Made by a program: the position numbers and the translations under genes | Part shown: in pieces, positions 1 through 64,000 of the stretch | Layout of the letters: the number at the start of each line of letters is the position of its first letter | Numbering within the stretch: position 1 is the stretch's first letter | Notes under the pieces: model-generated | Told to the model about the DNA's origin: nothing | Database searches by the model: none | What the model saw: only the letters and a program-made list of their open reading frames with translations | Assembly (NCBI GenBank): GCA_965178125.1 | Contig: OZ237760.1 | Span: forward strand, 806,001-870,000 | Reading direction: 5' to 3' | DNA from: Bilabrum cf. latius | Lineage: Eukaryota | Length of the DNA stretch: 64,000 bases

Positions 1-663
1 TCTCGCGCGAGAATTTGTGCACAAAGGCCGTCTCGAGGATGCGCTTGAGGTAGTGAAGCACCCAGGCGGCCACACCCAGCTTGGCGGCGAGCGTCCAGGG
101 CTTGCTGGCGGCGTCATCGCCGAAGAAGAAACCGGGACGCAGAGCCATGAGAGCCATGATAACCATCGGTCCGCCGTACTCGGCGTAGAAGACGCCCTCG
201 TATGGGAACTGCATGCCAATGTCCTTCAAGATCAGAGTTTTGTCATTGACGTCCATCTCGTTGAGAGTTTTCAGGTCGCGGTCGAATCGAATGGGGGTGG
301 GCTTCTTCCCATCCGTGCCTTCGATTTCGTACTTGAGGCCCTGGCGCTGGCGGTGGATCCTTCGGACTGCGCGGGGACTAGACACTGGTGGGGATCACCA
401 GAGACGATCGCTGGCCAGTTTCGTGCATGTATTGGCGCAAATGCCGGCTGTACGAGCTTTACCAATGCAGTTTACGGCTTTGAACGCAAATAATTGGTGC
501 CAGGAGCGCAAAATGCGCGCTTTCCGAAACTCTCACGGTCTTTGTTGGACGCGATCTCTTCCTTCAGCTAGCGCACAGTTGTATCGCCTGGCATGGTCAT
601 TTTCACGGGCTTCTCCATGTTCTTGCCACGCTATAGGACTACTTCAAACGATACATTCGCCAT
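1..663 (-). CDS. TECR: Very-long-chain trans-2-enoyl-CoA reductase (TECR/TSC13), 3' end outside window. Exons 663-537 and 366-<1; in-frame TAGs at 631-633 and 568-570
   Basis: Manual minus-strand translation: MANVSFEVVL*RGK...TTVR*LKEEI, GTGAGA...CGCAG intron (536-367), then LILKDIGMQFPYEGVFYAEYGGP and HYLKRILETAFVHKFSR, matching the TECR KDLGPQ..VF..EY.GP and H..KR..ET.FVH.FS motifs. Absent from the ORF track. Confidence 0.9.
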
Positions 664-845
664 GATCTACTCTACCTAGCGAAGAAGCTGCAACAACTTA
701 TCGGACGCGAGCGAAGTGAAATTATACACGCTACATAAAAACTTCAATCTGATATAGATGCGAGCAGAACGGGGATCGCCCTCAATTTCAAAAGTCTGAG
801 CGGACACGAATGATTTAACTGCATTAAATAATAATTTGGTTTCTT

Positions 846-3800
846 ATGCCGTTTCTGAAGAAGCGAAAATCGTTCAAAGTTCCGTTCCGTGTGCCTAGAG
901 GGGACGGGCAGAGCGGACCACCTGCGTCGAGCACGGCAACGCCAAAGGTGGCTCTCACACAGGCAAATCCGAATACTACCGGTAGCCATGTTAAGGTAGT
1001 TGGTACTGATCGATCGGGGGTGGCTGCAACCAGCTGCTCGGTTGCAGCTGTTAGCACTGCAGCTGGATTGCCCGAGCAAATGCCTGGAACGCGCGCTGGC
1101 ACTCAACAACAGCCGTCTACCGCTGCTGGCCCGGTGCGTGCCAAGTAGGCACTTGTGCGACCGGCCAAAAAGCCGGGCTTTGCCCCGCCCAAGCCGAGGG
1201 GCGGTCTAAGCAGCGCCGCTGGCACATCTGCCTGCAAATCCAGCGGCGAAGAGGTGCCAGACGCAAGCACGACGAGGGTGTTCCAGGTCATGTACACGAA
1301 AGTGAGCACTAAGAAGCGCAAGACGTGGGAAGACGGCGTCATGGTGCTGGACGGAAAGTACGCCCGGCTGTTCAACCAGGACGGCAAGCAGCTCGCCAAG
1401 CAGCTCACCAAGTTCCGCTCGCTTCGCGAGAGCGAGTCCCTCGCCGTGCAGCGGTACGACACCGAGTGCTACGGAGAGGTGCCCGCGGCCGAGTACATCT
1501 CCGGCAGGATCTTCGTGAAAGGCGCGGCCGCAGGCGCGGGCGCCAAAGCGAGCACCGGCCTGGGAGGAGCTGGAGGAGGCACGGGGGCAGCAGTGCCGAT
1601 TGCCAGGCGAAGTGCACTGGCGCCAGGGAAAGGCAGGACCTCCGTCGGCATGAAAGGGAGCGCGTCCACCTCGAGCGGCCCCTGGCAGGTGGGCAGGGGA
1701 CCGAGGCTGCCCCGCGTGCCCTCCCCCCGGCACAGCCCCTTTGCCCCCGGAGCGCTGCCCCTGTACGTGCCCCCCGGGGCGCAGGCGGAGGCGAGACCGG
1801 CCGCGCCCGACGGGTCCATGCCTGCTGTCCCCGCTGGGTCCGTGCTTCCAGTGTCGGGGGGCGACCGCCCGGGTTCCCAGCGAAGGTTCGGGGCCCCCTG
1901 CGTGTCGGTGGTGCTTGACCCCGTGCTTGCGTCGAGGCTGAGGCCGCACCAGAGGGAGGGCGTCCGTTTCCTGTTCGAGTGCGTGGCTGGGCTCCGCGAT
2001 TTCGACGGGTCTGGCTGCATCCTGGCAGATGCGATGGGCCTGGGCAAGACCCTGCAGACGATCTGCCTCCTGTGGACGTGCCTCAAGCAGGGGCCCAGGG
2101 GTGCGCCCCTATGCAGCAAGGCCGTGGTGGTGACCCCGTCCACGCTTGTGAAGAACTGGGCAAAGGAGGTCAAGAAGTGGCTGGGCAACGAGAGGCTCCG
2201 GCCGGTGGCGGTCACGAAGGGGGGCAAGGAGGCCAAGGCTGCTGTGGAGCAGTTCCTCACGGCCCCCGTGAGCCCCCTCCTGATCATATCGTACGAGCAG
2301 TACAGGCGATTCGCCAAGCAGATCAACGGGATGGGCAGCGCCAGGAGGTCCAAGGCGGGCGCGGCGGCTGGGGGCGCGGGCGCGTCCTCTCACCCCGTCG
2401 GGCTGCTGGTGTGTGACGAGGGGCACAGGCTCAAGCAGGCGGGCGGCAACCAGACCATCCGCGCGCTGGCTGGCTGTCCCTCCATGAGGCGAGTGCTGCT
2501 GACAGGCACACCCGTGCAGAACCACCTCGGCGAGTTCTACGCCATGGCCTCCTTCGTGAACCCCGCGGTGCTGGGCCCCCTGCAGACCTTCCGCCGGGTG
2601 TTCGAGCAGCCCATCCAGAGGGGCAGGGACAGGGGGGCCTCCCCGGCGGAGCAGGCCATGGGGGAGGAGAGGTCACAGGAGCTCGCGAGACTCACCTCGG
2701 TGTTTGTGCTCCGGCGCACCCAGGCCATCCTCGACAAGTACCTCCCGCCCAAAACGGAGCTGACGGTGTTCTGCCGTCTGAGCCTCCTGCAGCACAGGGT
2801 GTACGACCACCTGGTCAAGCACGTGTCCCCCCGGTACTTGCGAGGGTCCTCCTCGGGTCAGGGCGGAGAGCAGGCCCAGCCACTCACGCTGATCAACACG
2901 CTGACTTCTCTCTGCAACCATCCAGACCTGATCGCGCACAGACTCTGGGCGGAGCTCGCGAGGAAGCTGGAGGCGGGGACGGACGGGGAGGGCGATGGCA
3001 AGATCCTCTCGGTGAGGGAGGCGGCGCAGGAGGTGGAGAAGAGGACCGGTGCGGGTGGGATGGCCGCTTTGGCTGCGGAAGGCTCGTCCTCATACGCGGA
3101 CCAGGCAGCAAGGGGCCAGGCCACCAATGGAAAATCAGGCAACTCGAGGAAGAGGGCCCGACCGGAGCTGGCCGTGGGGGGCAAGGCAAGCAAGTCTGGG
3201 GGCCGCAAGGCCAAGCGCATCCGTGCGAGCAGCAGCACAAGTGGCGGCAAAGGTGGCAAAGGCGCCAAGGCTGGTGACGGCCATGCCAGCGACGGCTCCC
3301 TCGATTACGAGGACATGGAAGCGGAGGGAGAGGATGGAGAGGATGGAGAGGATGGAGAGGATGGAGAGGATGGAGAGGGCGAGGCCGCTGCGAGCGACTC
3401 AGACGGGCCGGAGATCGAGCTGAGCGACAGCGACGAAAATGATGGCGAAGACGATGATGACGATGATGATGGCGACGATGATGATGATGATGATGATGAC
3501 GAAGAGGAGGGGGAAGAGGAGGAAACGAAGGGCTACAAGGCCCCCCGCATGCAAGGGGTCGCCGCTAGGGGCGGCAGGGGGGAGGAGGACGGGTACGAGG
3601 GGGCGGGGCGGGTGCTGCGGCTGGGGCCCGACGCAGGGGAGGGCGAGTACCTGTACAACCGGCTGGGGAGGGCTGCATTGGAGGACGCGGGGCTAGACAG
3701 GGGGCTGGAGCTGCTGCACCTGCAGGCGGAGACCGCCGCGCATGCAGGCCGCGAGTCGTCGTCGAGCGGGGTGTCTGCATCCGTGCTGGACCAGCAGTCG

Positions 3801-4886
3801 CTGGTGGGCGGGCTGGCTGCCTCGAGCAAGCTAGCCGTGCTGGATGGGTTCCTGCAGAGCGTGCGGGCAGGAGACGCGTCCCCAACGGGTGGCCGTGCCA
3901 AGGTGGTGCTGGTGTCCTCCTCGACCAAGATGCTGGACTTGGTGCAGCTGCTTGCGGGGGCCCGGGGCTGGCCGCTGCTGCGGCTCGACGGGTCCGTGCA
4001 GACCCAGAAGCGTGACGAGCGTGTTGGCCACTTCAACAACCCCAGGCACCCGTCCTTTCTCTTCCTCCTGTCTGCTCGGGCGGGCGGGACGGGTATCAAC
4101 CTGGTGGGTGCCACTCGGCTGGTGATGATGGACTCGTCCTGGAATCCAGCCACCGACAGGCAGGCCATGGCGCGGGTGTGGAGGGACGGGCAGAGGCAGC
4201 ACGTTCACCTGATGCGGCTCGTGTGCGCGGGAACTTTGGAAGAGAAGATCGTGCAGCGACAGATGAGCAAAGAGGAGGTGAGCCAGGCTGTGGTGGGGCG
4301 GGACGGCGGCAAGGGGGGCAAGGGCAAGGCGCTGGGAGGCGGCAGCAGTGGGCAGCAGCGGAGCTTCACCCGGGATGAGCTGAAGGAGGTCTTCCGGCTT
4401 GTCCCCAGGGACGCCGAGGGATGCGAGACGCAGAGGCTGCTGGGTGCCAGTGCGAGCGCATCGGCTGCGGCTGCCAGGGAGCTCGAGGGAGAGGGAGAGG
4501 GAGAGGGAGAGGGAGGTGAGAGCTCCGCAGAGGATGGCACATCAGCAGGGGCATCAGCAGCAGGGGCTCAGCCCGCTGAGGACGCGTGGGGTGCGTGGGC
4601 GGGACCCGAGGCCGTGGAGGACCCTTGCCTGCGAGACGCGCTAGTGAGTCATGACGGGCTGGCGCAGCTGGTGGCGCACGTGCACCACCTGCGGGTCAAC
4701 CATGGGGGCGGGCAGGTGTTGGCCGCTGGCCCCGGGACAGGGGCGGCACGGGGGCCTGGGCGCGGCTCGAAGAGAGGGGGGCACCGGGTCCCGGCCAAGG
4801 CGTCGTCTGGGCGGCTGGAGGCAGCTGCTAGCAGCGCAATCGGGTCAGGGAGCCAAGGGGGGCAGCTTGGATCATCATCATCTTCA

Positions 4887-4921
<35 letters not shown>

Positions 4922-5240
4922 CTCGTCATCCTCATCCCTCGGGGCCGCGGCTCAGCAGGAGGCGCGCAGCCTGCTGGGGGCGATCCATGCAAAGTCTCAG
5001 GGCAGAGGGCTTGGGATGGCGCAGGGGGGCTCTGGGCTGGTGGAGAGGGGAGGCGAGGCCGGGGCAGAGGTCCCGGTGACCTCCAGCGTGTCTGGTGGGG
5101 CAGCGGGTGTGACCAGTGCGACCGGGGGGAATGGGGGTCACCCCTCTCAGTCTGCCGGGGAGGAGGCCGAGCTGGAGGGGCTGCTGCTGGAAGGGGAGGG
5201 TGGCGGCGGGGTCCCGAGTGGGTGGAACACCCGGCTGTGA
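846..5240 (+). CDS. RAD54B: RAD54B/Rdh54-like SNF2 DNA translocase, ~1464 aa, in-frame TAG at 1146-1148
   Basis: ORFs 846-1148 and 1155-5240 share a frame and are joined by a TAG. N-terminal VMYTKVSTKKRKTWEDG; SNF2 motifs LRPHQREGV, GCILADAMGLGKT, CDEGH, LTGTPVQN, GGTGINL, WNPATDRQAMARVWRDGQ. Ends TGA. Confidence 0.9.
3328..3522 (+). repeat. Coding microsatellites (GAGGATGGA)n and (GAT/GAC)n giving an acidic EDG/poly-D tract in RAD54B
   Basis: Visible tandem repeats; translation EDGEDGEDG...DDDDDDD. Confidence 0.85.
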
Positions 5241-5493
5241 GGGTGAGGGTGAGGGTGGTTGGCAGCAATGATGCAAGCTAAAATCATCGATCTCATGCAA
5301 CACAAGCATGCACAATCCCGGTATGGTAACGATGGAAGCAGTGTGCCGCACGCAAGTCGCACGCTCTTGCGAGCCATGGGCTTGCGTGGAGCCCTCGGTC
5401 CCTCCAGAAGCCACCCCCCACAGGTGCCTCCACCTTCCCAATGTCCGGAGCATTCAGACATCCAGTTACTCGCATAGGGGCACTATGGCCAGT

Positions 5494-6453
5494 TTACGGC
5501 ATCGTGGCGATCCCTAGGACCGGCGGCTCGAGTCCCTTGGTAGCGGGCATCACCTTCAAGATGGGCCCCTTGTGGGTGCCAGAGCCGCACCCGGGCATCG
5601 TCTTGGTCAGGGCCGCGGCGGGGTCCGCGCACTGGATGGCCTTGGTGTTTTTCCACATGCCCGGGCTCGCGAAATCCGTGGGCGACTTGAAAAAGTAGGT
5701 GCGTCCTGCGGATATGAGCTCTTTGCCTGCCGGGGTGGACTTGTTGGGCAGCTCCCCCGCGCCGCCCACAACGTTAAACGACACGACGTCCTTGAGATTT
5801 CCTCCAAGATACGTGTTGTACGCGCGGTTCACAGACTTGGCGGTCTCCAGCAGCAGGAGCGTGGTGGCGCACTTGCTTGCCTGGAAGCGCCTGGCAAGGT
5901 CGATGGCCGTAACGCCCGCGACCCCGCGACCCACCACTGTGAGGCTGCCCCCTGCCGCACACTTCGCATCCTTAACAAATTGCTGCAAAGCGCTGTCGGG
6001 GATACTGTCTGCGGTGCGCCTTGCGAAGTCCGAAGTCTTGCAATCCTTGCACGGCTAGCCTCCCTTGATCACCACCGGTGCAAGCTTCTCGAATTGCGGC
6101 AATGGTGCTGGCCCAGCAGAGGCGTCGGTCACCACGATGATGTTGCCATCCTTGCTGCCCTGGATGTGCGTGATGGTGACGTCCTTCTGCGTTACGGCGC
6201 TCTTTGGTTTCACAGCAGCAGCCGGCCCGCATTTGGCCTTGGCTGCAGGGTCATTCTAGCCGCCACCCACGGCACAGAGCCCCTTGATAGCAGTCTGAAA
6301 TGACTTCATGTCGGCAACCTCGATAGCCGAGGAGTGGCGAAGGCTGCGCGAGTTTACCCGAAGAAGCTTGTCGTGCTGCAGCCGGCTCTCTGAAGCCGCC
6401 CATGCTGAAGCTACAGCAAGGGCTGCAAAGGTAAGTGCCATTGCGCTTCGCAT
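5494..6453 (-). CDS. Predicted secreted protein (~319 aa), possibly a degenerate class-3 lipase fold. In-frame TAGs at 6256-6258 and 6055-6057; ends TAA
   Basis: ORF 6453-6256 (signal peptide MALTFAALAVASAWA) runs in frame through two TAGs into ORF 5988-5494. LTVVGRGVAGVTA and ETAKSVNRAYNTYL loosely resemble lipase_3 motifs. Confidence 0.7.
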
Positions 6454-7176
6454 TGATCAACGATTGGATCGGATGATACGCGCAATGAAGCTCGCGATGA
6501 AGTGCTCGAAGGAGTCGGACAGAGGTGTGCTTGTCTGCGGCACACGGCCAGTGGTTTCGTTAACGTTAAACCATTTTTCTGTTGAACTGCACGTAACCTT
6601 AAACAAAAAAGTTCAATCGCTACCATGGCCCTTCTTCTTGTTACTGGCAGCCGTGACAGCCATGGAAGCCCTCAAGCTGACAGCACTACCAGTAGACTAG
6701 CAGCCCCAAGGGCACGACTTCCACTCCTTCAAGCTGCGGCCCATTCGATCGACCAGGATGCTGATGCTTCCAAAGTCAGGCACCTCAAGAGACTTGCTGG
6801 ATGGCATCGCATCAAAGCAAGGTGCGCCCGTGCTTCGCCCCAAAGCCACATGTGGAGTTCAATGCAGTGCGGGCACCCGTCAGTTTGGTTGCCTCCAGCG
6901 CATCATGATCTGACGAACCATTCCCTCCATTGAGACTGTGGTGCGGCGTGGTGTGACGAGGTGGCTGCCGGGGCCTCTGTGGCATGCAAGTGCAGTGAGG
7001 TGCATGCGCATGGGCACCGCCATCTGTTTGGCTAGGGAGGACCAGCAGCACGTGCTCGTTGCTCGGTGCACATCCCACGAGCCACAAGCCACCGGCTGCA
7101 GGCGGGAGTTTGAGCTTATGTGAAGCCTCTCTGCCGTGCTCGTCCCGTGATTGTAGTGGAACCCAACGCTTAACGA

Positions 7177-7660
7177 TCAGACGTAGTACATTTCCAGTCC
7201 CATGCCGTCGTGAATTTCGTAGTCTTCAAGCGTAATCTGGTCCTTAAAGATTGTGTACCACTTCTGTAACTTGATCTTCTCTGGTTTTGTTCCTGTGCAT
7301 CTATGGAATACAAATAAGCTGACTACCCGGATAGGACGAAGCCGCGCGGCATGGCATGGACGTACCAAGAAAACCAGAAGAAACCATGTACCGGTGGCTC
7401 ACCAATCTGGGCTGCTACAAGCTTTTTGAGGTCTCCAATTGTATCATCCTCGTTGCACTTTACACGAACTCGCTTCCTGCATCGAAACAAACGAAGAATA
7501 ATCCTAGTTGATGGCGTGTGGATGCCACGACAGAAAAAGGGATAATAAACTCCTCTGAAAACGGCAGAAACGCAGCTGCCAGATGCCTCCAACCCCCTAT
7601 GAGCTGATGCATGAGACTAGTGACTCACCCAAGCCTATCGTTGCATACTACTTCGATCAT
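7177..7660 (-). CDS. UBL5: Ubiquitin-like protein 5 (Hub1), 73 aa. Exons 7660-7629, 7476-7403, 7292-7177
   Basis: Spliced product [73 protein letters not shown], canonical length. GTGAG donors, CAG acceptors, TGA stop. Confidence 0.97.
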
Positions 7661-7932
7661 GTTGAATCAAGTACCGCTAAATTTGTTGGGATGTCGCGCG
7701 TTCTGGTCGACGAACCTGCAAATCCACTATATCGAACGTTCTTCTGCATCGAGACGCCGCCGAACCGACAGGACCCAATGAACACAAATCCACGCCTTTC
7801 ACGTCTCAAATAGGCGGTATAGTGCTGACATACCATTTATACTAGAGACATGAGCACAAAAAGCAGACAAGAGGTTAGATATTGACAGGAAATCCGTAGC
7901 CTGACACCGATTCCATCGTGCTCGATGGACGA

Positions 7933-10900
7933 ATGTTGCACCCCAACTATTTGCATATAACGCAGGTTGACTCGAGTGTTCCAGCCCACCTGCGGCTCCG
8001 GAAATTGAACCACTACTTCTTTTCACGCGTTGTAAGTCTCTAGCTGCAATGCTCCACAGCATGTTGGCCGATATATGTAGCTGGGATCGAAACGCCGATT
8101 GTTTTGACCCTGCACCCAAATTTGTATCTACTATCGAGCATTTAATCCGCAGGTAGAACCGCTGGCATACTATGATGTCGGCCAGAATATGTACCAGGTT
8201 GACATGGACGAGAGTAGGACGCTCGTTATGGAGACTGGTGAGCTTACCATCTCTCGACTCTTCCACCTTTTGTTCAGACCTGCCCAGGGCAGCAGTGCAC
8301 GATCAACATACAATTTTTCTCTTTTATACTGGGCACTGCTCTCTCGCAGCTCGCGCCGTCAAGGCCAGCGAGGAGGGCCTCCGCAAGATCGAGCGAGAGA
8401 TGCTCCGCTCGACCAACGTGAGGCACAACCTCACGTACGGGGAGGTGCTCCCGCACTCAGTGGAGCAGAAACTCGTCCCTATGCTGGGCCCCACCTCCTC
8501 CTAGGATGTCTTCTACGACCTGGGCTCGGGCACGTGCAAGATCCCGCTGCAGGTGGCGCTGCAGACCCGCATCGGCGTGTGCAAGGGCATCGAATACGCC
8601 AAGGCCAGGCACGACGCGGCGGTGACTGCCCTGAGGAGACTGAGGGTGGTGGGGGACGAGGAGGTGCACGGGGCGGTGCGCCAGGCCGACCTTAAGTACC
8701 ACCACAAGAAGCTGGCGGGGAGCGGCCTGCAGGGGGCCGCTGGGGCCGTGGACGGCGCCTCCTCGTCCGATTCCGAATCCGACTCGGACATGGTGAAAGA
8801 GGTGGTCAAAGGCAGGGGGAACAGGAACAAGAGGGGCGGGGGGCGGCCGGCTCGGAAGAGGGCCAGGGTGGGTGCCGGGCGAGCTGCCGCGGGCAAGGGC
8901 AAGGGCAAGGGCAAGAGCAGGGGAAAAGGGAGGAGGCAGCTGTGGCGGCAGGATGACGATTTTGAAGATGAAGAAGAGGACGAGGACGCCGCCTTGGACC
9001 GCATGCACAGGGCGCTGGCCCGCCGCAGGAAGCGCCTGGATGCCAAGCGAGCGGCGCAGGGCAAGAGCAAAACAGCCGGTGCCTCCGACGACGACGATGA
9101 CGTGGACATCGACGTGGATGATGCGGCAGTGAGCAGCGATGGCGCACTGGTCAGCACCAGCGACAGTTCGGACGCAGACGACGCCGAGGAGGAAGAAGAG
9201 GACCTGCTGACGGACGCTTAGAAGAAGGAGATGATGCGCCGCAGGAGGGCCAGGAGGAGGAGACAGACCCGCAAGCAGCGGGCCAGGGTGAGGGACTCGG
9301 ATGACGAGAGCGGGGGAGGGGAGGATGGGGAGCTGGGGGAAGTCATGGAGGTGGTGGACATGGCCTCCGCGCCCTCTCCTGCGACCAACTCGATCATCTC
9401 GCTGTCCCCAGGGGGGGACCGGTCCGTGGCAGGTTCCGCAGTGCGCGGCGCCATCGTGGATCTCGCGGGCCGGGAGTCGGACGAGGACAACGAGGGAACA
9501 CCCGCGCGGTCCGTAATGCGCGGCGCCTCTGGTTCCGCAGCCCGCACCCTCTCGCGCAATCCTCCCGCTACAGGCGCGGGTGAGCAGTCTGTGCTGGGCG
9601 CGGGCCAGCTCTATGTTGACCTGGAGGAGGACGAGGACGTGGATGCGGACGACGAAGGCGAGAAGGAGGAGCAGGAGGAGCAGGAGGAGGACGAGGAGGC
9701 TGGGTCCAGGTCGAGGTCCAGGCACAGCAGGGTCGCTCTGCTTGGGGCCACTCCGGGCGGGGGATCCCCGGGGGTACCCCGGCTGTCCCCCTAGGGGGGC
9801 TCAAGCCCCCAGGGGCTGGAGGGGCAGCCCGTGCGCCTCACCGGCATGATCGGGGCGCTTGCTGCGGAGCAAGACCGGAAGAAGGCACAGGCCCGGCGCC
9901 GCGCATTGCGGAACCGGGAGGGCGCGAAGGAGGAGCAGGCCATGCGGGTCGCTCTGCAGAGAGCCAAGGCGACGGAGACAGAGGCCAGGAGAGCGGCCAG
10001 GAGGTCTGCTGCAGGGGCCTCCTGCAGCTCTGGGTCGTGCTCGTGCTGCTCCTCTAAGAGGGGCAGCAGCAGCAGCAGCAGGAGTGCTTCCTCGGCCTCT
10101 TCATCGTCGGCCTCCTCGAGCGGGGTCGCATCGGGGGCCTCCCCCTCTGCCCGCCGGCCCGCCGTCAAGCGCAGGAGAGATGGATCGCCGGCAGCGAGCC
10201 GGAGCGCCCAGCCAGCAGCCGCCTCTGCCCCTGGGCCCAGCGCCAGCCCCCTTCCCGCGGCAGTGGCGCACGCGGTTGCGCGCAAGGGAGCAGCGGTGCA
10301 GGCCCGCAGGTTTCTGCAGGCGAGCACGGGGCTGCTGGCGGCGGCACTGCGCGATGCCAGCAGCAGGACGTATGCCGTGCAGGGGGATTTCTGCAGGTAC
10401 GACCTGACGGACGCGACGATCGTGTTCGTGAACAACGTTTTGTTCCAGGACGCGCTCAAGCAGAGGCTGCTGGCCATCCTTGCTTCGCTGCCGAACGTTC
10501 GCGTGCTCGTGACCCTGCGCAAGCTGTGCTGCCGGCACCGGGCCTTCCACGAGACGAGGAACTACCCGTGCTCTGCCTTTCAGCTGGTCCGGGAGGAGCT
10601 CATCAACCCCACTTGGGACGGGGAGACCACTCTGTTCTTGTACCACAAGGTGAAGACCGTGCCTCTGTCGGAGCAGGACTCGAATTTTGTGGACGAGGAC
10701 GCCGGCCAGGGCAAGATGCAGGCGGGGGCCGACGCGGAGGTGGGAGATCTGGAGGGCGAGCACGAGCACGCGGGTGGGGCACTTGCTTCCGCGGCGGGGA
10801 GCGCGCTGGGAGTCGCGGGCGGAGACGGTGTTGTTCCCTCTGGCAGGAGGCATGGGAGGAAGGTTGGTCTCGTCTCGGCAAAGGGGGGCAAGGGGGGAGC

Positions 10901-10973
10901 AGCTGGCAGCGGCAAGGCAGGCGGCGGCGGTTCGAGGCTGCGTGCCGGTGCAAGGCGGGCGCTTCTTGGCTGA
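7933..10973 (+). CDS. DOT1: DOT1-family histone H3K79 methyltransferase-like protein. Exons ~7933-8031, 8153-8237, 8350-10973 (start uncertain); in-frame TAGs at 8502, 9219, 9792
   Basis: NLTYGEVLP, LGPTSS*DVFYDLGSGTCKIPLQVAL and CKGIEY, then far downstream VQGDF...DATIVFVNNVLF. Four ORF-track fragments share one frame and are joined only by TAGs. Ends TGA. Confidence 0.85.
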
Positions 10974-11274
10974 GGTTGTGTATGCATGGATGATATAAAC
11001 CAGAAATACACTCGTCAAGGCAAATTTTCCTCTATATATTCCCGACGCAGCCAAGAACACGAAAATGTCCATCACTGCATAGTAACGTGCAGTTATGGAA
11101 AGTCTGGTTTAGCATCGAAGCCAAAAAGCTGGCTCTCATCGACTGCTCTCTCTTTGGAGCTTGTCTATCAGTTTCAAGGCGCTTTTGGTCATCGCTGCAA
11201 CGTTTTATCACTTAATTGTTGCACTGAGCTGAGTTCTCGTGCTGTACAGCGTATCAAACGCGAGGTAGCTGGCG

Positions 11275-12884: not shown

Positions 12885-13122
12885 GTGAATGAAGCGGGAT
12901 CGCTTGCATTTGGAATTCGTAGATCTATTTCATCCTTCAAATCGCCACGCGAATGTTCGGTATTGAATATGCAGAAAAGACACGCAACTCAAGCCGCGAG
13001 AAGCCAGTTCGGGATCGGGACACTTCTGTAGCTGGTACTGCCCCCCAAGACAATTTGATCGGGTCGGATAAGAGCCAATTGGAACTAAATTGGACTATTT
13101 ATCACTTCTGTTTTTGCCAAGC

Positions 13123-14358: not shown

Positions 14359-14360
14359 TC

Positions 14361-14467
14361 TGATGAATCGCGAGTTGAACACTTATTGCGACCCACTTGG
14401 TGACTAGTTGTTAATTGATGAATCGCGAGTTGAACACTTATTGCGACCCACTTGGTGACTAGTTGTT
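14361..14467. repeat. Tandem duplication of a 52-bp non-coding unit (period 55)
   Basis: TGATGAATCGCGAGTTGAACACTTATTGCGACCCACTTGGTGACTAGTTGTT at 14361 and 14416. Confidence 0.92.
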
Positions 14468-14598
14468 CATTGTGCGACCGCCAGTGCAGTGCTGCATGCG
14501 ACCAGCCGCGCCTTGGATCACCCGGAGCTAAATTTATCGTGGTCCGTTGGGGGTTTTCTATCTGGTCCAAATTCTTCATTCGACAGCGTGACATTGCA

Positions 14599-28272: not shown

Positions 28273-28513
28273 CCTTCGAGGGGGGATGTACGGTGCACAT
28301 GGCCCAAAGGTGGATCGGATCAATGGCTTTGGGCTCCGGATCAGGTATTTTGCGATCCAAATTTCCATTAAATCTTACCATTGTAGAAGTTAAGAAAGCT
28401 ATAGCAGCACAATAGGCAATTATTTCATTTAACTGTTACAATTCCTTTGTTTAGTGGCAGAAGAAAGTCATTGCTACCCACTGAACACCGTGATAGGCCG
28501 GCGATTGGCTTCC

Positions 28514-46094: not shown

Positions 46095-46648
46095 TGTCTT
46101 GCTGAAATGCCGGGATTGCACCCCTTGATCGAGAGGTGCTTTGTACGGTTATGGTTTCGATATAATTAAAGTGCATTGCACTGATATGCGCACCCAACGA
46201 CTTGGAACACGATCGGGCTCTTTCCGTCCGTTATCAGGCGTAGATTAGTTTAGTGAGTGTGCATGTCGTGAAATAATGATACAATGGACCGTGATAGTGG
46301 GCGGTTGTACCGGATGCTCTCGTCACGACTGCTAGTGCGCCGTGTTTCGCTGCGACTTGATTTCAACTGCAACCGGACCGGCAGCCGCCCAGACAGCCAG
46401 CTCGCGCGGATATTCCGCAATCAGATACGTATACGATTGAGCTGGGGTCGTGCGTGACATGATCATTGCAGCTGCGCATTTCGTTCGCCTGCTCTCTGCT
46501 TCATCGCAGGCAAGCAAAACCGGCAGCACTCTTCGATTGGCCTGCCGCGCAGGGTCTTGGAGAGAGCGGCGACCAGTCTTGCAAGCGGCAAGACCCTAAG
46601 AACGATTTAATTACCCGCTAATCCGGCGCATTACACAAAGAGGTCGGC

Positions 46649-55440: not shown

Positions 55441-55471
<31 letters not shown>

Positions 55472-55774
55472 CAGGGGGCGCTGCAAGAGGCCCAGCGCCG
55501 GATCGCTGCCCTCTCGAAGGAGAACGCCGACCTGCGGGCCGAGCTGGGTGCCTTTGACCTGGAGTTCTTCGAGGAGCTGGAGGACCTCAAGTGGAGGTAC
55601 TAGCAGGCCGCGGCCAAGTGCCGGGCCTTCGACCAGTGGCTGACGGCGAGGGGGGAGGGGCCCTACGAGGGCGGGGAGGGGGACGGGTCGGGGAGGGGGC
55701 CCAGGGCGAGGGGGGGCGGAGCGGGGGGGGTTGCGGCTGGGGGCAGCGGGGAGGGCAAGGAGCAGGACGACTGA
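46649..55774 (+). CDS. CEP290: CEP290 ciliary transition-zone coiled-coil protein (~3041 aa); in-frame TAGs at 47117, 52043, 55601
   Basis: CEP290-like blocks ELEDDRVELLRQLR, LYAQYVRERKGW, SDDDAAIIGRLQ, WEADSKL, and the C-terminal FDLEFFEELEDLKWRY signature. Three co-frame ORFs; the frame continues to TGA at 55772. Confidence 0.88.
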
Positions 55775-56113
55775 GGCTTGACCGGAAGTGCAGGGGGGCT
55801 GAATCCGCCGAAGCCGGATAGGGTCATCAGATCAGATAGGATAGGATAGGATCGTTGACAGGTAGACATTGCAGACATGTTGTGCGGCGCGATGAAATCG
55901 AAACCAATTGATGCTTGATGCAAGGCAGTGCGCGTGTGTCATGATCAACTCATCGTGCACCGTTAGCAGATACGGGCTCTGGCTTCTCGGCGTGCTTAAC
56001 TGGTGGTGCACGCTTGCCACCCACAAGCCTCACATCACAGCTCCTGCTCCTGCTCCCGACTATCGGGTGACACATATTGGGGAGGAGGGGTTGCAGTGCG
56101 GCTCTGGGCGGGC

Positions 56114-57306
56114 TCATGCGCTGTAGGCGTCCAAGTTGCTGGACAGGAAGGCCATGTTGGAGTCCATCACGCGGATGGTGTACAGCACCTTGCCCCCGCC
56201 GTCCATCTCGGCCCAGTTGGGCCCCGAGACGATCTCCTTCTGCCCGGCGGGCACAGTCGGCAGCGTGATCAACTGCTTGCCCATGTACGTGTCCCACAGC
56301 ATGCCGCGGTCGTACACCTGGATGGTAGCGCGGGTCACGCTCTCATCCACCATCACGACGTACCCGAGGTTGTCTGCGGGGCGAGAGCTGGGTAATAAAT
56401 ATTAGCGACAGCAGTCTGGTTGATAGCACGGCGTCCGGCACCAGAGCAGACACAAACTATTTGTGCGATCATTCCAACATGATGCTCAAATTACCTCCTT
56501 ACACTTGGGATCCACAGTCTCGTCCAGCGATGGTGTGGCGATCGATGTACCAAAGTTGGAGTTGGCACCGATTACGCTGTTCCTGTCGGTTCCATCGAAG
56601 CTTACTGCGGAAAAAGAATTAAATTTCTAAACCAACAAGCATGGGCCATGTTTCTGCTTGCTCTTACGAGCGGCCTTGTCAAAGAAGCCTTGGGAACTGG
56701 GCTATGGCTGGGTAGCAGCCTCCCAGCGACGGCAAAGAGAGAGACAACCAACATAAATCTAGCGCAACAGCTCACCATGGATATACGGGTCGCTCTTTCC
56801 GCAGCACTCCACGTTGGGCAGCCCCTCAGCTCTGTGGATGAACCTGCAAGATATGTAGAGACGGTGAGTTTGGCAAGAGCCAGTCCACTCGGATGGTACA
56901 GCACGGCATGGCAAGGTACCAAAGCTAGCCGTTCAGTGCATTAGCGCGTTAAACGTTTACAGCTGCACGGAACTAGGTGCTGAGCCTCTGTTCGGTCCCA
57001 TGCCGTAATTCACTCTCACACTCCGAGCATCCTGCGGGGAGAAGCGAAATACGTCGACAAGAAAATCAAACTACGCTGCGCACCGAAATGCATACAATAT
57101 AAGTGCATCAATGTAGCCATAAACGGGAGACAAGCCCCGCAAAAGTAACCCCTGCTGCGCTCAAAGCTTGCAGCTATGATTGATGGCGGCAGGAACGCCA
57201 TGCGTCGCTGCCCGTTCCGCGAAAGCTGGGTACCTTACCTCGTATACTTGGTTCCAAGACTAATCCTAGTCACGGCTTCCTTGTCTGCTGCGCTCGCCTG
57301 GGCCAT
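56114..57306 (-). CDS. Small C2-domain protein (169 aa). Exons 57306-57239, 57031-57020, 56843-56776, 56604-56503, 56373-56114
   Basis: Spliced product ...MLGVFIHRAEGLPNVECCGKSDPYIHVSF...TPSLDETVDPKYN...IQVYDRGMLWDTYMG follows the C2 pattern. All four GT-AG introns are phase-compatible. Ends TGA. Confidence 0.8.
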
Positions 57307-57661
57307 TTTACCAGAGTCTACTGAGAAACCTTTGCAGCGGCGCCAACGACCAAAGGTCAATCGGTTTCGCGCTAGTGGTCGCATTTGTGGTCGCAACAGG
57401 TTGCAACCACAAATGCGAACTTTCGGTCCGTTAGGAAAGCTTCGGCAAGCCAAAGGGTGCTACCAAAGCACTTCCTGCAAACGTTCAACGATAGGTTGCA
57501 TAAATTTTCTGCTTGCGAGCTGTTTCTGCGAGAAGAACTAGGAGCCGCTTGCCTGAAGGCTACGGGGCCAATTTCCGAATATGGAGACGGGCGGCACCGC
57601 TGTGACAAGAGATGCCCCTACCCTCATATTGGATGATATTTCAGAAGAAGCGATTGATAAA

Positions 57662-58651
57662 ATGTCGGAAGACATCTAGCGATGGAAGCATCAATCAGCT
57701 GAAAGCGACATGAGGGTGAGCGTGCGCGCACCAACTTGGAACTAGCTCCCATCGCACTCCATCGGGCAGCATCAAACCAAGTAACCCTTCTCTTTATCAT
57801 GTTCTAATGCAGGAACTGCGGCGAGAAGTGGACGAGGCGAAGCTAAGCGGCGACATTGGCGCCTAGCGGGATGCTCAGTTCTAGCTGGCAACGAGGTTGG
57901 CCCTGCACCGGGGTAATGAGGAAGCAATTGAGGGAATAGCCATGCTACAAGGTGAGAATATGCAGAATATTGGGGTGACTCTCGAGTTCTCGATTTTGGA
58001 CTGAGTTTCGTATGTGCCCTGTAAGCACCCCAGTCTAGCAGGCCTGGCCGATGCGGGACACCGCGAGCTCGACTGCATGCTCCGAGCTGCGGCAGCTCAA
58101 ATGGAACTGGGTAACTTTGCAGAGTGCCGTAGAATGGTAGGCGACCTGCTAGACCGCGCGCCTACCCTGGAAGATGGGCTTGCATTGCGTGAAATCATGG
58201 TACGAACCGTGCGAGCACGTGAGTTGGAACTACCTGCCCGGCAACGATCCAAACCAGAGCCGCCGCAGTGCATGCGATGCACACCCAACTTACCTTGTAC
58301 CTTCTACCTCCCATTGCCCTCACAGATGGAGTGCCTGGCATCGCGCTGCTCACGGGGGCCGGGCTGCTCGTGGCAGGGGTCCTCTTCGGGCTCGTGCTGT
58401 GGGCCGAAGGGGACGGGGATGCACCGCCAGGGGCAGGGGCAGCCAGGTCGGGGAGGGTGGGCAGGAGAGGAAGGGGTGGGCGAGGTGCTTCCTCAGGGCA
58501 GCGCACTGGCAGGCCAACGCTAGGTGGTGCTGGGCGGGGGGTGCGTGCCACCGCTCCTCCTTTCTCTGGCGCTAGCTCTGGCGCTGCTGGCAGCGGAGGG
58601 CCTAGGGCAGGCAGGTCGCTGCGAGGGATCGTGGATCGACTGCACGAGTGA
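57662..58651 (+). CDS. FIS1: FIS1-like TPR protein with transmembrane segment. Exons 57662-57715, 57813-57951, 58042-58218, 58326-58651; in-frame TAGs at 57677, 57864, 57882
   Basis: AQF*LATRLA...EGIAMLQ, DCMLRAAAAQMELGNFAECRRMVGDLLDRAP and GVPGIALLTGAGLLVAGVLFGLVLW follow FIS1 architecture. GTGAG donors are phase-compatible. Ends TGA. Confidence 0.65.
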
Positions 58652-58864
58652 TCCCCGGGTCGCGGTTCGTGGATTCGAAAGGATCGGATTCACAGTTGTT
58701 TGTTTTGTTTTTGTACAGCAGCATTAACCTGGAGACAACATGCAGCATTCGCCTTCCAATCGCAGTGAATTGTCTACTCGGTCGCAGTACAACATGATGG
58801 GCTAGATCTGCCAGATCTTGCCGTGGTAGGGGATCATCACTCCATCCACTAGTAGTACTTCACG

Positions 58865-61800
58865 TCAGCTACCCTCCGGCAAGGATATCGCATCCCTTGC
58901 GTACACCAAGGCTGGCTCCTTGGCAGCCAGCACGCTCGCCCTCGAGCCACTTCCATCCACGGTGCCCTCGCCACTGCCACCCGCGGGGATCGCTGCGACA
59001 GGGCTCTAGCCCCCCTCGGCGGGTGCGAGATGGTGCGGCCCTTGAGGCTGCCCGTATGCCCTGGCATTCCGCAGCTTTCTTTTCTTCTCAGCTGGCTTGC
59101 CCTCTATAGGTGGAGAACCGCTGCTGCCGCCCGCCGACCTCGACTCAGGTATCGAGCCCCTCACCGAGCCCCCTTGCACGGATCCCTCCATGGATCCCTG
59201 CACAGACCCGTGCATGGACCCGTCAATCGATCCCCTGAAAGAGCTCTCCACGGATCGACTCATCATGGACGCGCCAGTCATGCTGGTGCCTCGGCTCGCA
59301 GCCGTGACAGGAGCCCCGATGAGTCCACCGAGCTCGTGACCAGGATTGCCCGGGGAGCCTCCCGCGGCCTCTCCCCGTCTGCGCCTCGGGGCCTCCTCTG
59401 CGTGCGCGTCTAGCCTAGCTGTCACATCGATGCCTCCACTTCGCTGTGCTTCAGTTGGGTGTGCCGGACCTGGTACCTGGTTCCCGTGATCGGCCTCCAG
59501 CTAGCTGTGCCCGCTCGCCCAGGCCGACTGGCTGCAATACGCCGGGCTCACGGCGAAGGAGCTCCCCTCCCTGCTGGATCCACTTCGCTTGCCCTTTTCG
59601 CTTCGGCTTCGGCTGTCTGACTGCGTGCCCCGCTAGGTAAGGCCCCACTTTGGGAGTTTCCTGAACTGCGAAGAGATGTGCATGGACGCGAGTGAACCGC
59701 CTCGGCTGCCAGACATCCCAGAGTGCATGGACGTCTCTGCATCCGAAGCAGCCTCTGCAATGGTTCCAAGGCTCTCTCCTCCATCACCCGGCTCTTCCCC
59801 CTGCCCTATGATCCCTTCGCTCTCGCTGGACCGCGTGGGGCCCTCGGGGACATCGCCATTCGGAATGGGCCTCGGGTGCTGTGTGCTGCCTGCTGGCTTC
59901 GATACTCTTGTCTCCTGCATAGTCAGACGGCGCAGTCCGTTGGCTCCCTTGTCAATCACTATGTCAGTGGGTGCACCGTTGGGAGCGGGCACAGCCTCAC
60001 CGGCATCACTTGATCCGCTGGGCTTGGGCAAGGGCACGAGACCAGCCGCTTCAACCTGCACGGGCAGCTTGCTGCCGCCCGAGTGCGCTGAGCCTGTTTT
60101 CTGCTTTTTGTTCCTGTCGGTAAGTGGATGTGCCCTGCCCGTTGGCCTGGTTCGTGGGGCCGGCAGGGGCACCCGAAGAGAAGGGACTTCCTCAGCTGCT
60201 CGCTCGTCCATGACGCGGTAGTCGAACCCTTCAATGTACGCGATGGCCTGCTATGCATTTGCAGTCTTCTCGCCATCAGCCGAATTTATCCAGTCCCCAT
60301 CTGCGACTCTCGAATGCGCGCCATTGCCTCTGTCACTGCCATTCCCTGAGTGGAAGATCTCGATGGAGGCGCTCTGCGCAGCTGCCCTCATGCTAGACTC
60401 CACGTCCGCGTTTGTCTTGCGGCTGCTCTCTCTCTTGCGCGGACCTTCCATGATATTCCTGTCACTGGTGGTCTCGGCCTCAGACGCTTGCGTTGTGCCG
60501 CTTCCGCTCGAGCTGCCTGGTACAGTTGAGCCTTTAGCGCGAAGGAAGCGAGCATGCCCGACCGCGGCCTCCCCACGACTGCCCCTGGACGAATTGGACG
60601 ATGTGCGGCCAGCAGCAGAGCCAGCCCCAACGACAACCTTGGCTTTCGATGGATTGCGTTCGATTGATTTCTGCGCGACGCGAGCCAGCTGCAGCATGTG
60701 GGAGAGTGTCCTGGCTCCCGCTCGCTTCTGGGCCCGCCCGATCACGCCATCTTTCCGGATGGCAGCTGCCTCTGCCGTAATCTCCCGCCCACCTAGATCT
60801 GCAGGAGTGAGTGAGGCCGCACTACTCGGATGCGTGCTTTTCTCGTCAACGCTGGCCGCCCTGCTGCGATTGAGGAGCCCCCTCGGCGGCCCCCTTCCCA
60901 CCGGCGAGCCTGCCCCGCTCTGCCTCCTCCCGAGCCACAGGCCCTCGCCTTTGCGCGCTTTTGCCGCGCTCAATGGCGCTCGCATCGTCGCGAAGCTTCG
61001 TCTTCGCATCCGATCGGACGGCATGGCTTGCTAGCTCTTCGTCTTGCGGATGCCCCCAGCTGCTTGATGCGGCAGTTGGGGGGCGAGCCGGGACTGCAGC
61101 CCCGCCAAAGACAGCCGCTCGCTGGAGGCAGGAACCCACGGGGGTGTTAGCAGTCTCGCCCTGAGTGCTTGCCAGTCGATTTCCTCGAACCACGGGTGCT
61201 CCATCACCTCCTGGATCCCATCGCCCCCGAGCCGCCAATGCTCGTTGCAGATGAGCAGCCTCTCCACGAAGTCCAGGCCCTCCTTGGATGGTTTCGGGGG
61301 AGGGATCGGGACTTCTCCGGCGCCAGGGCTTAGCAGACCCTACATAGTGCCGATACTAGATTTCTTCTTGCTCTTCTTGAATTCGGCCTCGTGCATGGAC
61401 CTGGTACCCTTGAGCCCTCCCCGACTGGCAGCCATGACCTCGGCAGCGATCTGTGCCTGCTCCTCGCTGTCGTCCAGGGTGCACCCAAAGACCACTCCTA
61501 TGGAGCGCCACCGCTTACGCTGGGCTTTGACTAGCACCCGCTGAGCCACGCTCCTCTCTAGGACCGCCTTGGCAGGGATAAAGCTGCGCATGCGCACCAT
61601 CGTCTGGATGCTCTCGCGGTCTGCCGGATACGGCCGCGTCCCAAACAGCAGCTAGTGCACCGTCACTCCAAGTGCATACATGTCAGCCATTCGATCGTGC
61701 TTGCGGGTGCGGACAAACACCTCCGGGGGCATGAAGTGCAAGGTGCCGCTCAGTCCCCGCGAGCTTGGGGCTTCGGCGCTCGATTCTCGGCGCACGCGAG

Positions 61801-62479
61801 CACTCACCCCAAAATCACCGATGCGAACAAAGCCATCAGAATCAATCATGAGATTTTCAGGCTTTACGTCTCGGTGAATGATGCCACGGGCGTGGAGATC
61901 GGCCAAGGCAAGCACAGCTTGGGCGGCATAAAATTTTGCAGCGTACTCGGGCAACCGCCCGAACGCCTGCCCGTGTGCCAGCCAGAATAGATCGCCGCCT
62001 GTGCATAGATCCATGACAAGGTATGCATTTTCTCTGTCTTGGAACGCGAAATGGAGGTTCACGACAGAAGTGCTTCGGCTCGTTGCCTGAAGCTCCCTCT
62101 CCAAGACAAGGCGCCGAACCCGCTTTGGCGAGAGAGTTGACTTGTCAATTACTTTCATGGCATACACGATATTGTTTCGGAGCCATTTGACGGCATACAC
62201 GGACCCGAATCCGCCCTGCGATACCAAAAAGAAGTTATGCTGAGGAGCGTGCTAAGGCGCACAGGGAACTCTGCATGGCGAGCAGAGCGTCAGAGCGCCA
62301 CTCACTGATCCAATACTGCATATTTGCTCAAATTCGTACAGCTTCTTTGCCGATAGTTGGGAGAGTGTGCGCCGATTTGGCTGATCCATGCGATGCGAGG
62401 TCTGCCCTGTAGGGTTAGGGGGGTCTGGTCCGTCATACTAGCCTGCAGACGCACCAACACTACTCGTCCCGCACCCCAT
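58865..62479 (-). CDS. AGC-group Ser/Thr protein kinase with N-terminal MGCGTS acylation motif and long disordered C-terminus. Intron 62305-62216; 8 in-frame TAGs
   Basis: IGS|GGFGSVY spans the intron; YAMKVI, HRDVKPEN, DFG, GTLHFMPPE, DMYALGVTVH*LLFGTRPY, DFVERLL..RLG..HPWF. TAGs at 62438, 61652, 61340, 61031, 60251, 59633, 59501, 59006. TGA at 58865. Confidence 0.9.
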
Positions 62480-62709
62480 TACCGCAACTTCGTCGCAAGC
62501 ACGAATTATTTTTAGATTCGATCAATAGTGCGTGCCTCTGCCGAAGTTCAGGTCTGCCCTTGAGTCGAGCGCGAAAAGCATCACCGCATCATCAGATCCG
62601 GATTTGTGGCCCCGGGCCGAAGGTTCGGTTCAACAACGAAGTTCCGCCATGCGGCTTGATCATGGATCCCGAACCTGTATTTCGGATACTATCTCGTTGG
62701 TTGTTTCAA

Positions 62710-63719
62710 ATGGAGGAGGAGTATGACTACGATGATGATGAAAACTACGACTATATGGCAGAATATGAGGATAATGCATCGGAGCTTGCCGGAGAAGATG
62801 ATCTTGGAGAAGATGATCTTGATGGCGGCGAGGAGGACTCCCCCGGCGTAGTGACGACCCAAGCCAGCGCGTCTGGGTCCGATGGCGTGGCACTATCTGA
62901 TGATACCGTGCAGGTAGCGCAGACGTGCGCAGCTCGGAGGTCTGACAGCGACCAGCCTACTATCGACCGTGCCAACGGCACGCCCGCAATCAAGACAAAT
63001 GCAACTCCCGAGTCCCCGCGCACGTGGCAGCAGTATATACTACGTGTTCACGGAACCAATCCATAGGCCGCGAGGGTGATCGGAGCCAGCCCGGACGCTG
63101 CCAGCAGGCCGAGACATCAGCGCGGAATCCCGTTCTTGAAGCACGTCTCGTTTATTGAATCCCAGGCCTCCCGCCGGCGAGACATGTTCAAGGCTCGGGC
63201 CCGATTGGGATACTTGGCTGGCCTCGCCCGGATGGTTGCACGCCACGATCTAGGCAAGCTGCCGTCGCATGGAGCCCGCCACGCTTCCTCTCGAGCCGGA
63301 GCCCACGGCACCCACGGGGCCGGCGGCGGGTCAGGCGCGAGCGACCGCCAGCCCACCTCTGGCCAGGTGGCCCGCTGCGTGAGCCAGCTGCGGGAGCACC
63401 GCGAGTCCTCTCAGATGGTGGCCCGTCTGCTGTCGAGGCCGCTGCCCGAGTGCCTTGTGGCCCTCCGGCACACGGGCTGGGACGAGAACAGGGCCGTGCA
63501 GTGGCTGCTGGACAAGGCGGAGGGTATTGGGAGGGGCTCTGCCTTCTACAGGGAACTACAGGCATTCAGGGCTGCGGTGCGGCAGGACCAGCTGCACCCC
63601 CCGAGGGAGGACACGGTGAGGAGGCACAGGCCCGAGGCGGTGAGGCTCATGGAGTTCTTCGGGAGGAGCGAGGTGGACGCGATCGTGGCGCTGGACAACA
63701 ACGCGGGCAGCGTGGAAAG
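62710..63719 (+). CDS. First exon of a protein with an acidic N-terminus and UBA-like repeats; in-frame TAG at 63064; probably continues beyond the window
   Basis: MEEEYDYDDDENY...; UBA-like ECLVALRHTGWDENRAVQWLLD and DAIVALDNNAGSVER. The second is cut at AG|GTGAGA, a likely donor at 63720. Confidence 0.6.
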
Positions 63720-63777
63720 GTGAGAAGCCAACGATCCCAGCCCCAGTTGGCGACGGTGGTGCAGACGCCCCCGCCAG

Positions 63778-64000
63778 CTCTCGCCCCTGCTGCCACCCGC
63801 CCATGCAAGTGCCATTGCCTTCCAACTCTCGCCCCTGCTGCCACCCGCCCATGCAAGTGCCATTGCCTTCCAACTCTCGCCCCTGCTGCCACCCGCCCAT
63901 GCAAGTGCCATTGCCTTCCAACTCTCGCCCCTGCTGCCACCCGCCCATGCAAGTGCCATTGCCTTCCAACTCTCGCCCCTGCTGCCACCCGCCCATGCAA
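63778..64000. repeat. 48-bp tandem minisatellite, at least 4.6 perfect copies, runs off the window edge
   Basis: Unit CTCTCGCCCCTGCTGCCACCCGCCCATGCAAGTGCCATTGCCTTCCAA repeated head-to-tail. Confidence 0.95.

Follow-up and report, generated by a model that had tools for sequence, protein, structure and literature searches.

The 64,000-nucleotide stretch analysed here, positions 806,001 to 870,000 of contig OZ237760.1 (GenBank assembly GCA_965178125.1, Bilabrum cf. latius) and called the window below, most likely departs from the standard nuclear genetic code in the meaning of UAG. This codon is best explained as a sense codon, most likely for glutamine, in nuclear genes throughout, and UGA and UAA still terminate. 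We give this reading a probability of about 0.86; UAG as glutamine with UAA and UGA as stops is the combination that we take to be NCBI table 15. A preliminary description of the window had proposed that TAG is a sense codon throughout it, and this was borne out by long open frames, by RNA contigs and by a coding signal that continues past the TAGs. Of the checks it had suggested, all that were run favoured reassignment. Its preference for codon reassignment over pseudogenes likewise stood, as TAG alone interrupts the frames and coding composition persists behind the TAGs.

The window has a G+C content of 65%. With the standard stops it splits into many medium-sized open reading frames (ORFs), and when TAG is read through the pieces fuse into very long frames in which neither TAA nor TGA occurs, the longest having 4612 codons (14434-28272, forward strand). 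Altogether 64 in-frame TAGs were counted on both strands in 14 of 16 ORFs or exons, 62 of them in the 15 long ORFs and two in exon 1 of an enoyl-CoA reductase gene; 63 of the 64 lie downstream of the first Met. Zero TAGs were found in the isocitrate dehydrogenase (IDH) gene and in the ORF at 36934-38364. The earlier figure of about 62 TAGs therefore held up as 64; the share, previously 15 of 19 gene models, is here 14 of 16, counted over ORFs and exons. TAG makes up about 7% of the presumed glutamine codons.

Because the long ORFs were delimited by TAA and TGA, the counts in their reading frame (TAG 62, TAA 0 and TGA 0 in 18523 codons) contain the two zeros by construction. What counts as evidence is how long the frames stay open, for thousands of codons where out-of-frame TGA occurs at about 1.3% per codon: the two other frames of the same 18523 codons hold 80 and 74 TAG, 32 and 42 TAA, and 272 and 217 TGA. 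No frameshifts were seen across frames of up to 13.8 kb. Random nonsense mutation would give about 64% TAG (usage-weighted one-step neighbours 3282, 1103 and 739), so that finding TAG in 62 of 62 cases has a probability of about 1e-12 under that process. The difference between G+C at third codon positions (GC3) and at second positions (GC2), taken over 40 codons, was 0.12 before in-frame TAGs and 0.17 after them; after terminal TGA or TAA it was 0.017. Likewise, the median open frame was 823 codons after an in-frame TAG versus 46 after a terminal stop, and the shortest open stretch after a TAG was 42 codons.

Several TAGs lie within conserved domains, much as the preliminary description had placed them. 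TAG 8502, said to precede motif I of a DOT1-like methyltransferase, stands three residues ahead of the DLGSG motif, and the TAG that had been assigned to subdomain IX of a protein kinase (codon 61654-61652, reverse strand) lies in the alpha-F stretch after the D-x-x-x-x-G motif. In a gene of the fumarylacetoacetate-hydrolase family (FAH), TAG 39182 was found six codons ahead of DYE within the FAH domain, in agreement with its reported position before the VDYE motif. The TAGs attributed to the N-terminal domain of a TECR-like reductase are 633 and 570, both in the N-terminal exon.

Public sequencing runs were used to follow the TAGs into RNA. Bases 5001-15000 are contained in eleven public runs, of which four (X3, X5, X6 and X7) were aligned to bases 1-20000. 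None of the listed runs is recorded as RNA; the automatic guess was 'RNA?' for X5-X7 and, for X5, also 'probably DNA'. Run X3 behaves as DNA, with a flat depth of about 35 and 0 other letters in all listed pieces. Two studies distinct from the likely source provided runs X5, X6 and X7, whose depth ranges from 0 to 71349. They show four joints, all with canonical intron ends (366>537, 7291>7402, 7475>7628 and 11349>11475), and X3 shows none of these; because of these intron-skipping joints that X3 lacks, X5-X7 were taken as RNA assemblies. Of the 21 in-frame TAGs in bases 1-20000, 12 lie in contigs of these runs with 0 differing letters. Ten of them (633, 570, 6258, 6057, 11622, 12012, 12423, 13201, 13435 and 13732) are covered in all three runs, TAGs 8502 and 9792 in one run each. 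The four real introns are removed, and no RNA joint removes any covered TAG. The only listed variant places (14090, 14091, 14221 and 14224) are all inside a tandem array. Spliced RNA thus retains UAG at every one of the 12 covered sites, a point on which the preliminary description had wanted mRNA to be consulted. Its further concern, that CAG might have been turned into TAG by systematic assembly error, is answered by the independent DNA run: because X3 gives the same sequence in the listed pieces, the TAGs are not assembly errors.

Termination was assigned to TGA and TAA. Among 17 gene ends, defined by the first TAA or TGA, 15 are TGA, 2 are TAA and none is TAG, so that TGA accounts for about 9 in 10 gene ends in the window. 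The 15 long ORFs contribute 13 TGA and 2 TAA ends, and a small ubiquitin-like gene and the exon ending at 56117 also end in TGA. The TGA of the FAH gene stands where the proteins of its relatives end as well; ends were compared with relatives or known homologs for the FAH and the ubiquitin-like gene. Within the 64 kb neither UAA nor UGA is used as a sense codon, with frames of up to 4612 codons free of both. Upstream, TAA bounds 9 of the 15 ORFs, in eight of them 4-27 codons ahead of the first Met, and the stretches leading outward from the bounding TAA to the next TGA (2-157 codons) have a non-coding-like GC3 of 0.0-0.58. If TAA were also read as glutamine, about 10 in-frame TAAs would be expected from the CAA:CAG ratio of 0.17, and 0 were observed. 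A code in which both UAA and UAG (UAR) mean glutamine (table-6 type) was rejected for this reason and because TAA ends 2 of the 15 ORFs. At the gene at 5494-6456, RNA extends 220 bases past the TAA, and the 66 codons from this TAA to the next in-frame TGA have a GC3 of 0.53.

The residue inserted at UAG, which the preliminary description had not named, is very probably glutamine, judging from close relatives. The database protein P0265, which clusters at 90% with a fragment of the window's FAH protein, is 99% identical to that protein with 1 mismatch in 231 residues, and it carries Q at TAG 39182. Q is also found there in P0001 (75%) and P0002 (70%), which at TAG 38978 show Q and K, respectively. 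Contig L001, which encodes P0001, has CAG at both FAH sites, one transition from TAG. In a 2039-codon ORF, TAG 30086 is opposite Q in 5 of 5 relatives (P0261 and P0266 at 82-84% identity, P0263, P0267 and P0268 at 40-60% over the aligned parts); the surrounding block is almost invariant and differs from the 84% relative at about two of 125 residues. A TAG in the tyrosyl-tRNA synthetase (TyrRS) gene of L001, just before KMSKS, is opposite Q in 5 of 5 solved chains shown. A tally of BLOSUM62 scores over close relatives alone gave Q 28 and E 16. The sites at which Q was seen as the orthologue residue are few in all.

Leucine and serine were rejected, since close relatives show Q, K or E opposite TAG; L and S occur solely in stretches of low identity. 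Two such sites are uninformative for the residue: TAG 633 in the reductase, opposite S, V, V, V and V in a stretch of 12-20% identity, and TAG 29219, opposite L in a 40% identical relative. The same holds for the PDB alignment of the FAH loop, for the WD-repeat protein of L001, and for a likelihood computed from neighbouring residues, where K, H, V and Q ranked highest, E lower and all scores were negative.

The window is not alone in this use of TAG. L001 (13854 bases, 55% GC) has 19 in-frame TAGs in three genes, namely a 1142-codon WD-repeat frame (14), the TyrRS gene (2) and a TMEM175-like gene (3), and its complete genes end in TGA in 5 of 5 cases. From closer relatives the databases hold protein fragments, 95%, 85% and 82% identical for the reductase, 95% for IDH, and about 83% and about 55% for the large ORF. 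P0262 starts just after TAG 29219 of the window and P0266 terminates exactly at TAG 30506; the reading frames are conserved in relatives, as is the position of one TAG. Standard-code gene callers cut at every TAG, and public collections contain proteins of this clade only as fragments (P0003, P0253-P0255, P0261-P0268). With the TAGs of L001 and the fragment ends at TAG sites of the window as the reason, at least three or four species-level lineages would read TAG as sense. A genome-wide code, as the preliminary description had it, is not demonstrable from 64 kb, but it is backed by L001 and by relatives' proteins that start or end at TAG sites of the window.

The TyrRS of L001 (6302-7807) matched one group of solved TyrRS far better, at 1e-137 to 1e-127, than the chains named 'cytoplasmic', at 1e-34 to 1e-29; its N-terminus is extended by about 140 residues of low complexity. 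Another contig, L011, was considered as a second TAG-reading contig, as an ORF in it grew from 748 to 1646 codons, and was rejected: it is bacterial and carries three genes in one frame separated by TAG stops. At 3331-8271 these are a gene for an unknown protein, an FAH-family enzyme and a UvrB-like gene, and reading through TAG yields a false ORF of 1646 codons. L011 serves as a control in that long frames obtained by TAG read-through are by themselves no evidence.

How the codon is decoded can be sketched from how other lineages with UAG-to-glutamine changes are thought to work. A tRNA-Gln with anticodon CUA, derived from tRNA-Gln(CUG), would decode UAG but not UAA, and the release factor eRF1 would recognise UAG less well or no longer. 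An anticodon CUA is expected of the tRNA because UAA stays a stop; the same argument was made by Pánek et al. for Iotanema (PMC5304391).

Several observations weigh against glutamine as the meaning of UAG, and most of them would suit a sense codon for glutamate, or for another residue such as lysine. TAG 29876 is opposite E in 2 of 2 close relatives (82-84%), albeit in a variable stretch, and only four TAG sites of the window have close relatives at all. Among distant homologs, acidic residues prevail: the kinase TAG is opposite E of ribosomal S6 kinase alpha-3 (the five alignments shown being constructs of one protein), TAG 8502 is opposite E and K in two solved DOT1 chains, the reductase homologs have D, D, N, E and D, and 9 of 11 farther FAH homologs have E or D at TAG 39182. 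When far homologs enter the BLOSUM62 tally, E is level or slightly higher (24.3 vs 21.0 for Q). A precedent also exists, since one ciliate is listed with UAG as glutamate and UAA as lysine (PMC11687900). Only close relatives can separate Q from E, because Q is often swapped for E, K or R in distant homologs. Against glutamate, Q stands exactly at TAG 39182 in a protein with a single mismatch in 231 residues, all five relatives have Q in the near-invariant block at TAG 30086, both FAH TAGs face CAG, the TyrRS site of L001 has Q in every chain shown, and the score of close relatives favours Q. On these comparisons of sequence, we consider glutamate improbable, and the chance of any residue other than glutamine or glutamate is small.

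Further points touch the scope of the code and its machinery. TAG could have a dual meaning set by context, sense inside genes and stop at some ends, as in some ciliates and Blastocrithidia. Only 17 gene ends are readable, and since they were taken as the first TAA or TGA, a gene truly ending at TAG would be read on; moreover, the absence of in-frame TAA is partly due to construction, and in-frame TAGs occur in untranslated stretches after terminal stops. Yet none of the 17 ends is TAG, FAH ends level with its relatives at TGA, and no class of TAG is followed, on average, by a drop in the coding signal, the shortest open stretch behind a TAG being the 42 codons given above, so that a dual meaning is about as improbable as glutamate. 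The scan for the machinery detected no tRNA gene in the window or in L001 (78 kb scanned together), and no eRF1 gene was seen in the 78 kb read. The missing tRNA(CUA) would fit a variant without a dedicated tRNA, in which UAG, owing to weak release, is read by near-cognate tRNA-Gln(CUG); such near-cognate reading of UAG by tRNA-Gln is described for standard-code organisms (PMC13192750). This variant is unlikely, if a little less so than the two preceding alternatives, as the genes at 13072-14358 and 11475-12884 combine very high RNA depth with three TAGs each, which would make inefficient readthrough costly. Because one ORF contains up to 16 TAGs, the efficiency per UAG codon must be near 1. 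Finally, the TAGs could be products of artefact or decay: the genes might be pseudogenes, the assembly might be systematically wrong, or UAG might be edited in the RNA or excised with tiny introns. The runs are contigs, which lose rare variants, and are thus compatible with partial, low-level editing; nothing was found in favour of the others. That only TAG interrupts the frames, at odds of about 1e-12 under random nonsense mutation, that frames of up to 13.8 kb are free of frameshifts, that the independent DNA run is identical, that spliced RNA keeps 12 of 12 covered TAGs with no joint at any, and that relatives conserve the frames and one TAG position together make such an origin extremely improbable.

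The genes that carry this evidence are arranged as follows. The window opens with the 5' part of a TECR-like very-long-chain enoyl-CoA reductase gene (1-671, reverse strand), whose exon 1 runs from the ATG at 663 to about 537 and holds TAGs 633 and 570; the intron is 367-536, and exon 2 (1-366) runs off the window. The joint 366>537 (CT..AC) was present in X5, X6 and X7 and not in the DNA run X3, and the RNA pieces 537-670 have 0 other letters. Its relatives P0253-P0260 have PF02544, one of them being named very-long-chain enoyl-CoA reductase by its source. The mRNA contigs of the reductase end 1-8 bases 5' of the ATG. A SNF2/RAD54-like helicase ORF of 1470 codons follows (828-5240, forward, stop TGA), with one TAG (1146) and Pfam matches to SNF2-rel_dom (2.6e-57) and Helicase_C (6e-15). 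The expressed gene at 5494-6456 (reverse, 320 codons, stop TAA) has a hydrophobic N-terminus and TAGs 6258 and 6057; RNA contigs 5274-6368, 5274-6509 and 5274-6517 cover it in three runs with 0 other letters. The small ubiquitin-like gene lies at 7177-7700 on the reverse strand (upper bound approximate), with introns at about 7292-7401 and 7476-7627, and ends in ...EMYYV TGA. Its joints 7291>7402 and 7475>7628 (CT..AC) were found in three runs and are missing in X3. We presume it to be UBL5-like; the partial exon gave no Pfam match.

The DOT1-like histone methyltransferase ORF (7971-10973, forward, 1000 codons, stop TGA) contains TAGs 8154, 8502, 9219 and 9792 and matches Pfam DOT1 at 1e-12; RNA pieces 8372-8781 and 9344-11021 show 0 other letters. 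The DOT1 domain (8600-10400) was matched in two stretches; the low-complexity sequence between them, acidic, basic and rich in Ser, is about 600 residues long. Two strongly expressed genes stand behind it on the forward strand. The mRNA of the highly expressed one (11174-12919) begins at 11174, contains an intron at 11350-11474 (GT..AG) and TAGs 11622, 12012 and 12423, and terminates at TGA 12884; its joint 11349>11475 appears in three runs at a depth of 132-822 with 0 other letters. The second (13053-14358) is very highly expressed, has a hydrophobic N-terminus, TAGs 13201, 13435 and 13732 and a TGA stop, and carries a Lys/Glu/Pro/Ala-rich tandem array of 30/45-base units at 13938-14340. RNA contigs 13053-13965 and similar ones in three runs have 0 other letters. 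RNA contig depth at this gene reached 71349, versus 2-800 elsewhere in bases 1-20000, despite its three in-frame TAGs. At 11174 and 13053 the 5' ends of the mRNA contigs are joined directly to sequencing adapter, and for this reason these mRNAs are taken to be without a spliced leader. RNA contigs of two genes end in, or a few bases past, the heptamer GCTTGCA, found at 5271-5283 on the reverse and at 12902-12909 on the forward strand; the contig ends beside it are 5274 and 12915-12919, and one 3' untranslated region is only about 31 bases long. The heptamer may be a cleavage or polyadenylation signal.

Downstream lies the open frame of 4612 codons (14434-28272, forward), with 16 TAGs, a TGA stop and no Pfam family, followed on the same strand by the lineage-specific 2039-codon ORF (28433-34552, stop TGA). 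The latter holds eight TAGs (28880, 28925, 29219, 29876, 30086, 30506, 31943 and 32057) and found 4 matches only among 1.84 billion representatives. An ORF of 678 codons (34519-36555, forward, stop TGA) has TAGs 34642, 34660, 35758 and 36424, the first two of which may precede the true start; the ORF at 36934-38364 entered the TAG tabulation as one without TAG. The FAH gene (38849-39715, forward, stop TGA) carries TAGs 38978 and 39182 and matches Pfam FAA_hydrolase at 5.2e-80. A coiled-coil-like ORF of 1473 codons with four TAGs and a TAA stop (39799-44220, reverse) is followed by NADP isocitrate dehydrogenase (44670-46148, reverse, stop TGA; Pfam Iso_dh 6.3e-60), which serves as an internal control without TAG. 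A second coiled-coil-like ORF (46622-55774, forward, 3050 codons, stop TGA) contains TAGs 47117, 52043 and 55601.

Only short exon-like ORFs without Pfam match occur at 55800-58860. One of them, 56117-56401 (reverse, GC3 0.91), resembles part of an intron-bearing gene with a C2-like domain, a tentative reading of 56117-56932; Pfam found nothing on the small exons at 55.8-58.8 kb nor on the UBL5-like and reductase exons. The AGC-like protein kinase ORF (58865-62521, reverse, 1218 codons, stop TGA; Pfam Pkinase 9.1e-51) has nine TAGs. One of them (61654-61652) falls within the kinase domain, whose last subdomains are preceded by an insert of about 100 residues. The last ORF (62191-63723, forward, 510 codons, stop TGA) shows a weak UBA match and TAGs 62410, 62416 and 63064, the first two possibly preceding the true start. 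At 63774-64000 a nearly perfect tandem array of 48-base units, with 99% matches over 4.7 copies, is cut off by the window end.

The kind of eukaryote was approached through composition, gene structure and homologs. The four introns are GT-AG and 110-170 bases long, and exons reach 13.8 kb. The DOT1 domain matches only two PDB DOT1 chains (257-258 residues), IDH shares about 70% identity with homologs from bacteria and from eukaryotes, and the leads from clusters are broad, being animal, fungal and bacterial for IDH and fungal and arthropod for the ARP3 of L001. No relative of P0261 turned up among the prokaryote genome contigs scanned. An aphelid identity was rejected on G+C, which is 40% in Amoeboaphelidium (PMC10608142), the one parasite of algae with UAR as glutamine in the literature consulted, versus 65% here; Nuclearia has 44%.

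As far as the literature searched shows, the kind of code, UAG as glutamine only, is already known and this lineage is not; the search, which covered few subscription journals and no organism names, gave no GC-rich non-ciliate lineage with UAG as glutamine only besides Iotanema. We would tentatively propose, at slightly less than even odds, that an undescribed non-ciliate clade of at least three to four species-level lineages with 55-65% GC independently uncoupled UAG from UAA and made UAG glutamine. If so, it would add a further origin of a rare code, in a GC-rich genome with TGA as the main stop; one of its lineages would yield abundant RNA in public runs, and relatives at 99%, 95%, about 83% and about 55-75% protein identity would allow one to follow the turnover between TAG and CAG and the sequence in which tRNA and eRF1 changed. 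Departures from the nuclear code are few, and those that split the meanings of UAG and UAA are fewer: the literature consulted lists Iotanema, Scotinosphaera, one rhizarian and a few ciliates. A further lineage with several close relatives would make it possible to study the origin of a CUA-anticodon tRNA and of an altered release factor, to see whether CAG-to-TAG transitions, to which both FAH sites point, are the main route by which TAG codons spread, and to ask whether high GC and heavy use of TGA ease the loss of the UAG terminator. In practice, standard gene prediction breaks most proteins of this eukaryote into pieces.

Ciliate macronuclear DNA is AT-rich and consists of short gene-sized or gene-dense molecules. 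The window, with 65% GC and exons of up to 13.8 kb, shows none of these features. The same code table is found among ciliates, since Protocruzia tuzeti and two phyllopharyngean lineages are given with UAG as glutamine only (PMC11687900). The code with UAR as glutamine is recorded for many ciliates, ulvophycean green algae, hexamitid diplomonads, oxymonads and the aphelid Amoeboaphelidium protococcarum (PMC5304391, PMC11687900, PMC6299283); the change of UAG from stop to glutamine is common to these and the window, but UAA is sense there and stop here. Other changes restricted to UAG are reported for the rhizarian exLh (leucine) and for Scotinosphaera (serine) (PMC11687900, PMC5304391). In these two, as in the ciliate with UAG as glutamate, UAG has been uncoupled from UAA as in the window, and the residue differs. 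The closest parallel outside the ciliates is Iotanema spirale (Fornicata), for which UAG is described as glutamine and never as a terminator, with UAA and UGA as stops (PMC5304391). Like Iotanema, the organism of the window would have reassigned only UAG, to glutamine, and kept UAA as a stop, so that a CUA anticodon is required. The window differs from Iotanema in its 65% GC, in its canonical introns and NADP isocitrate dehydrogenase gene, in having TGA in place of TAA as the main stop, and in that the trait extends to several related lineages; to all appearances, the two organisms are of unrelated kinds.

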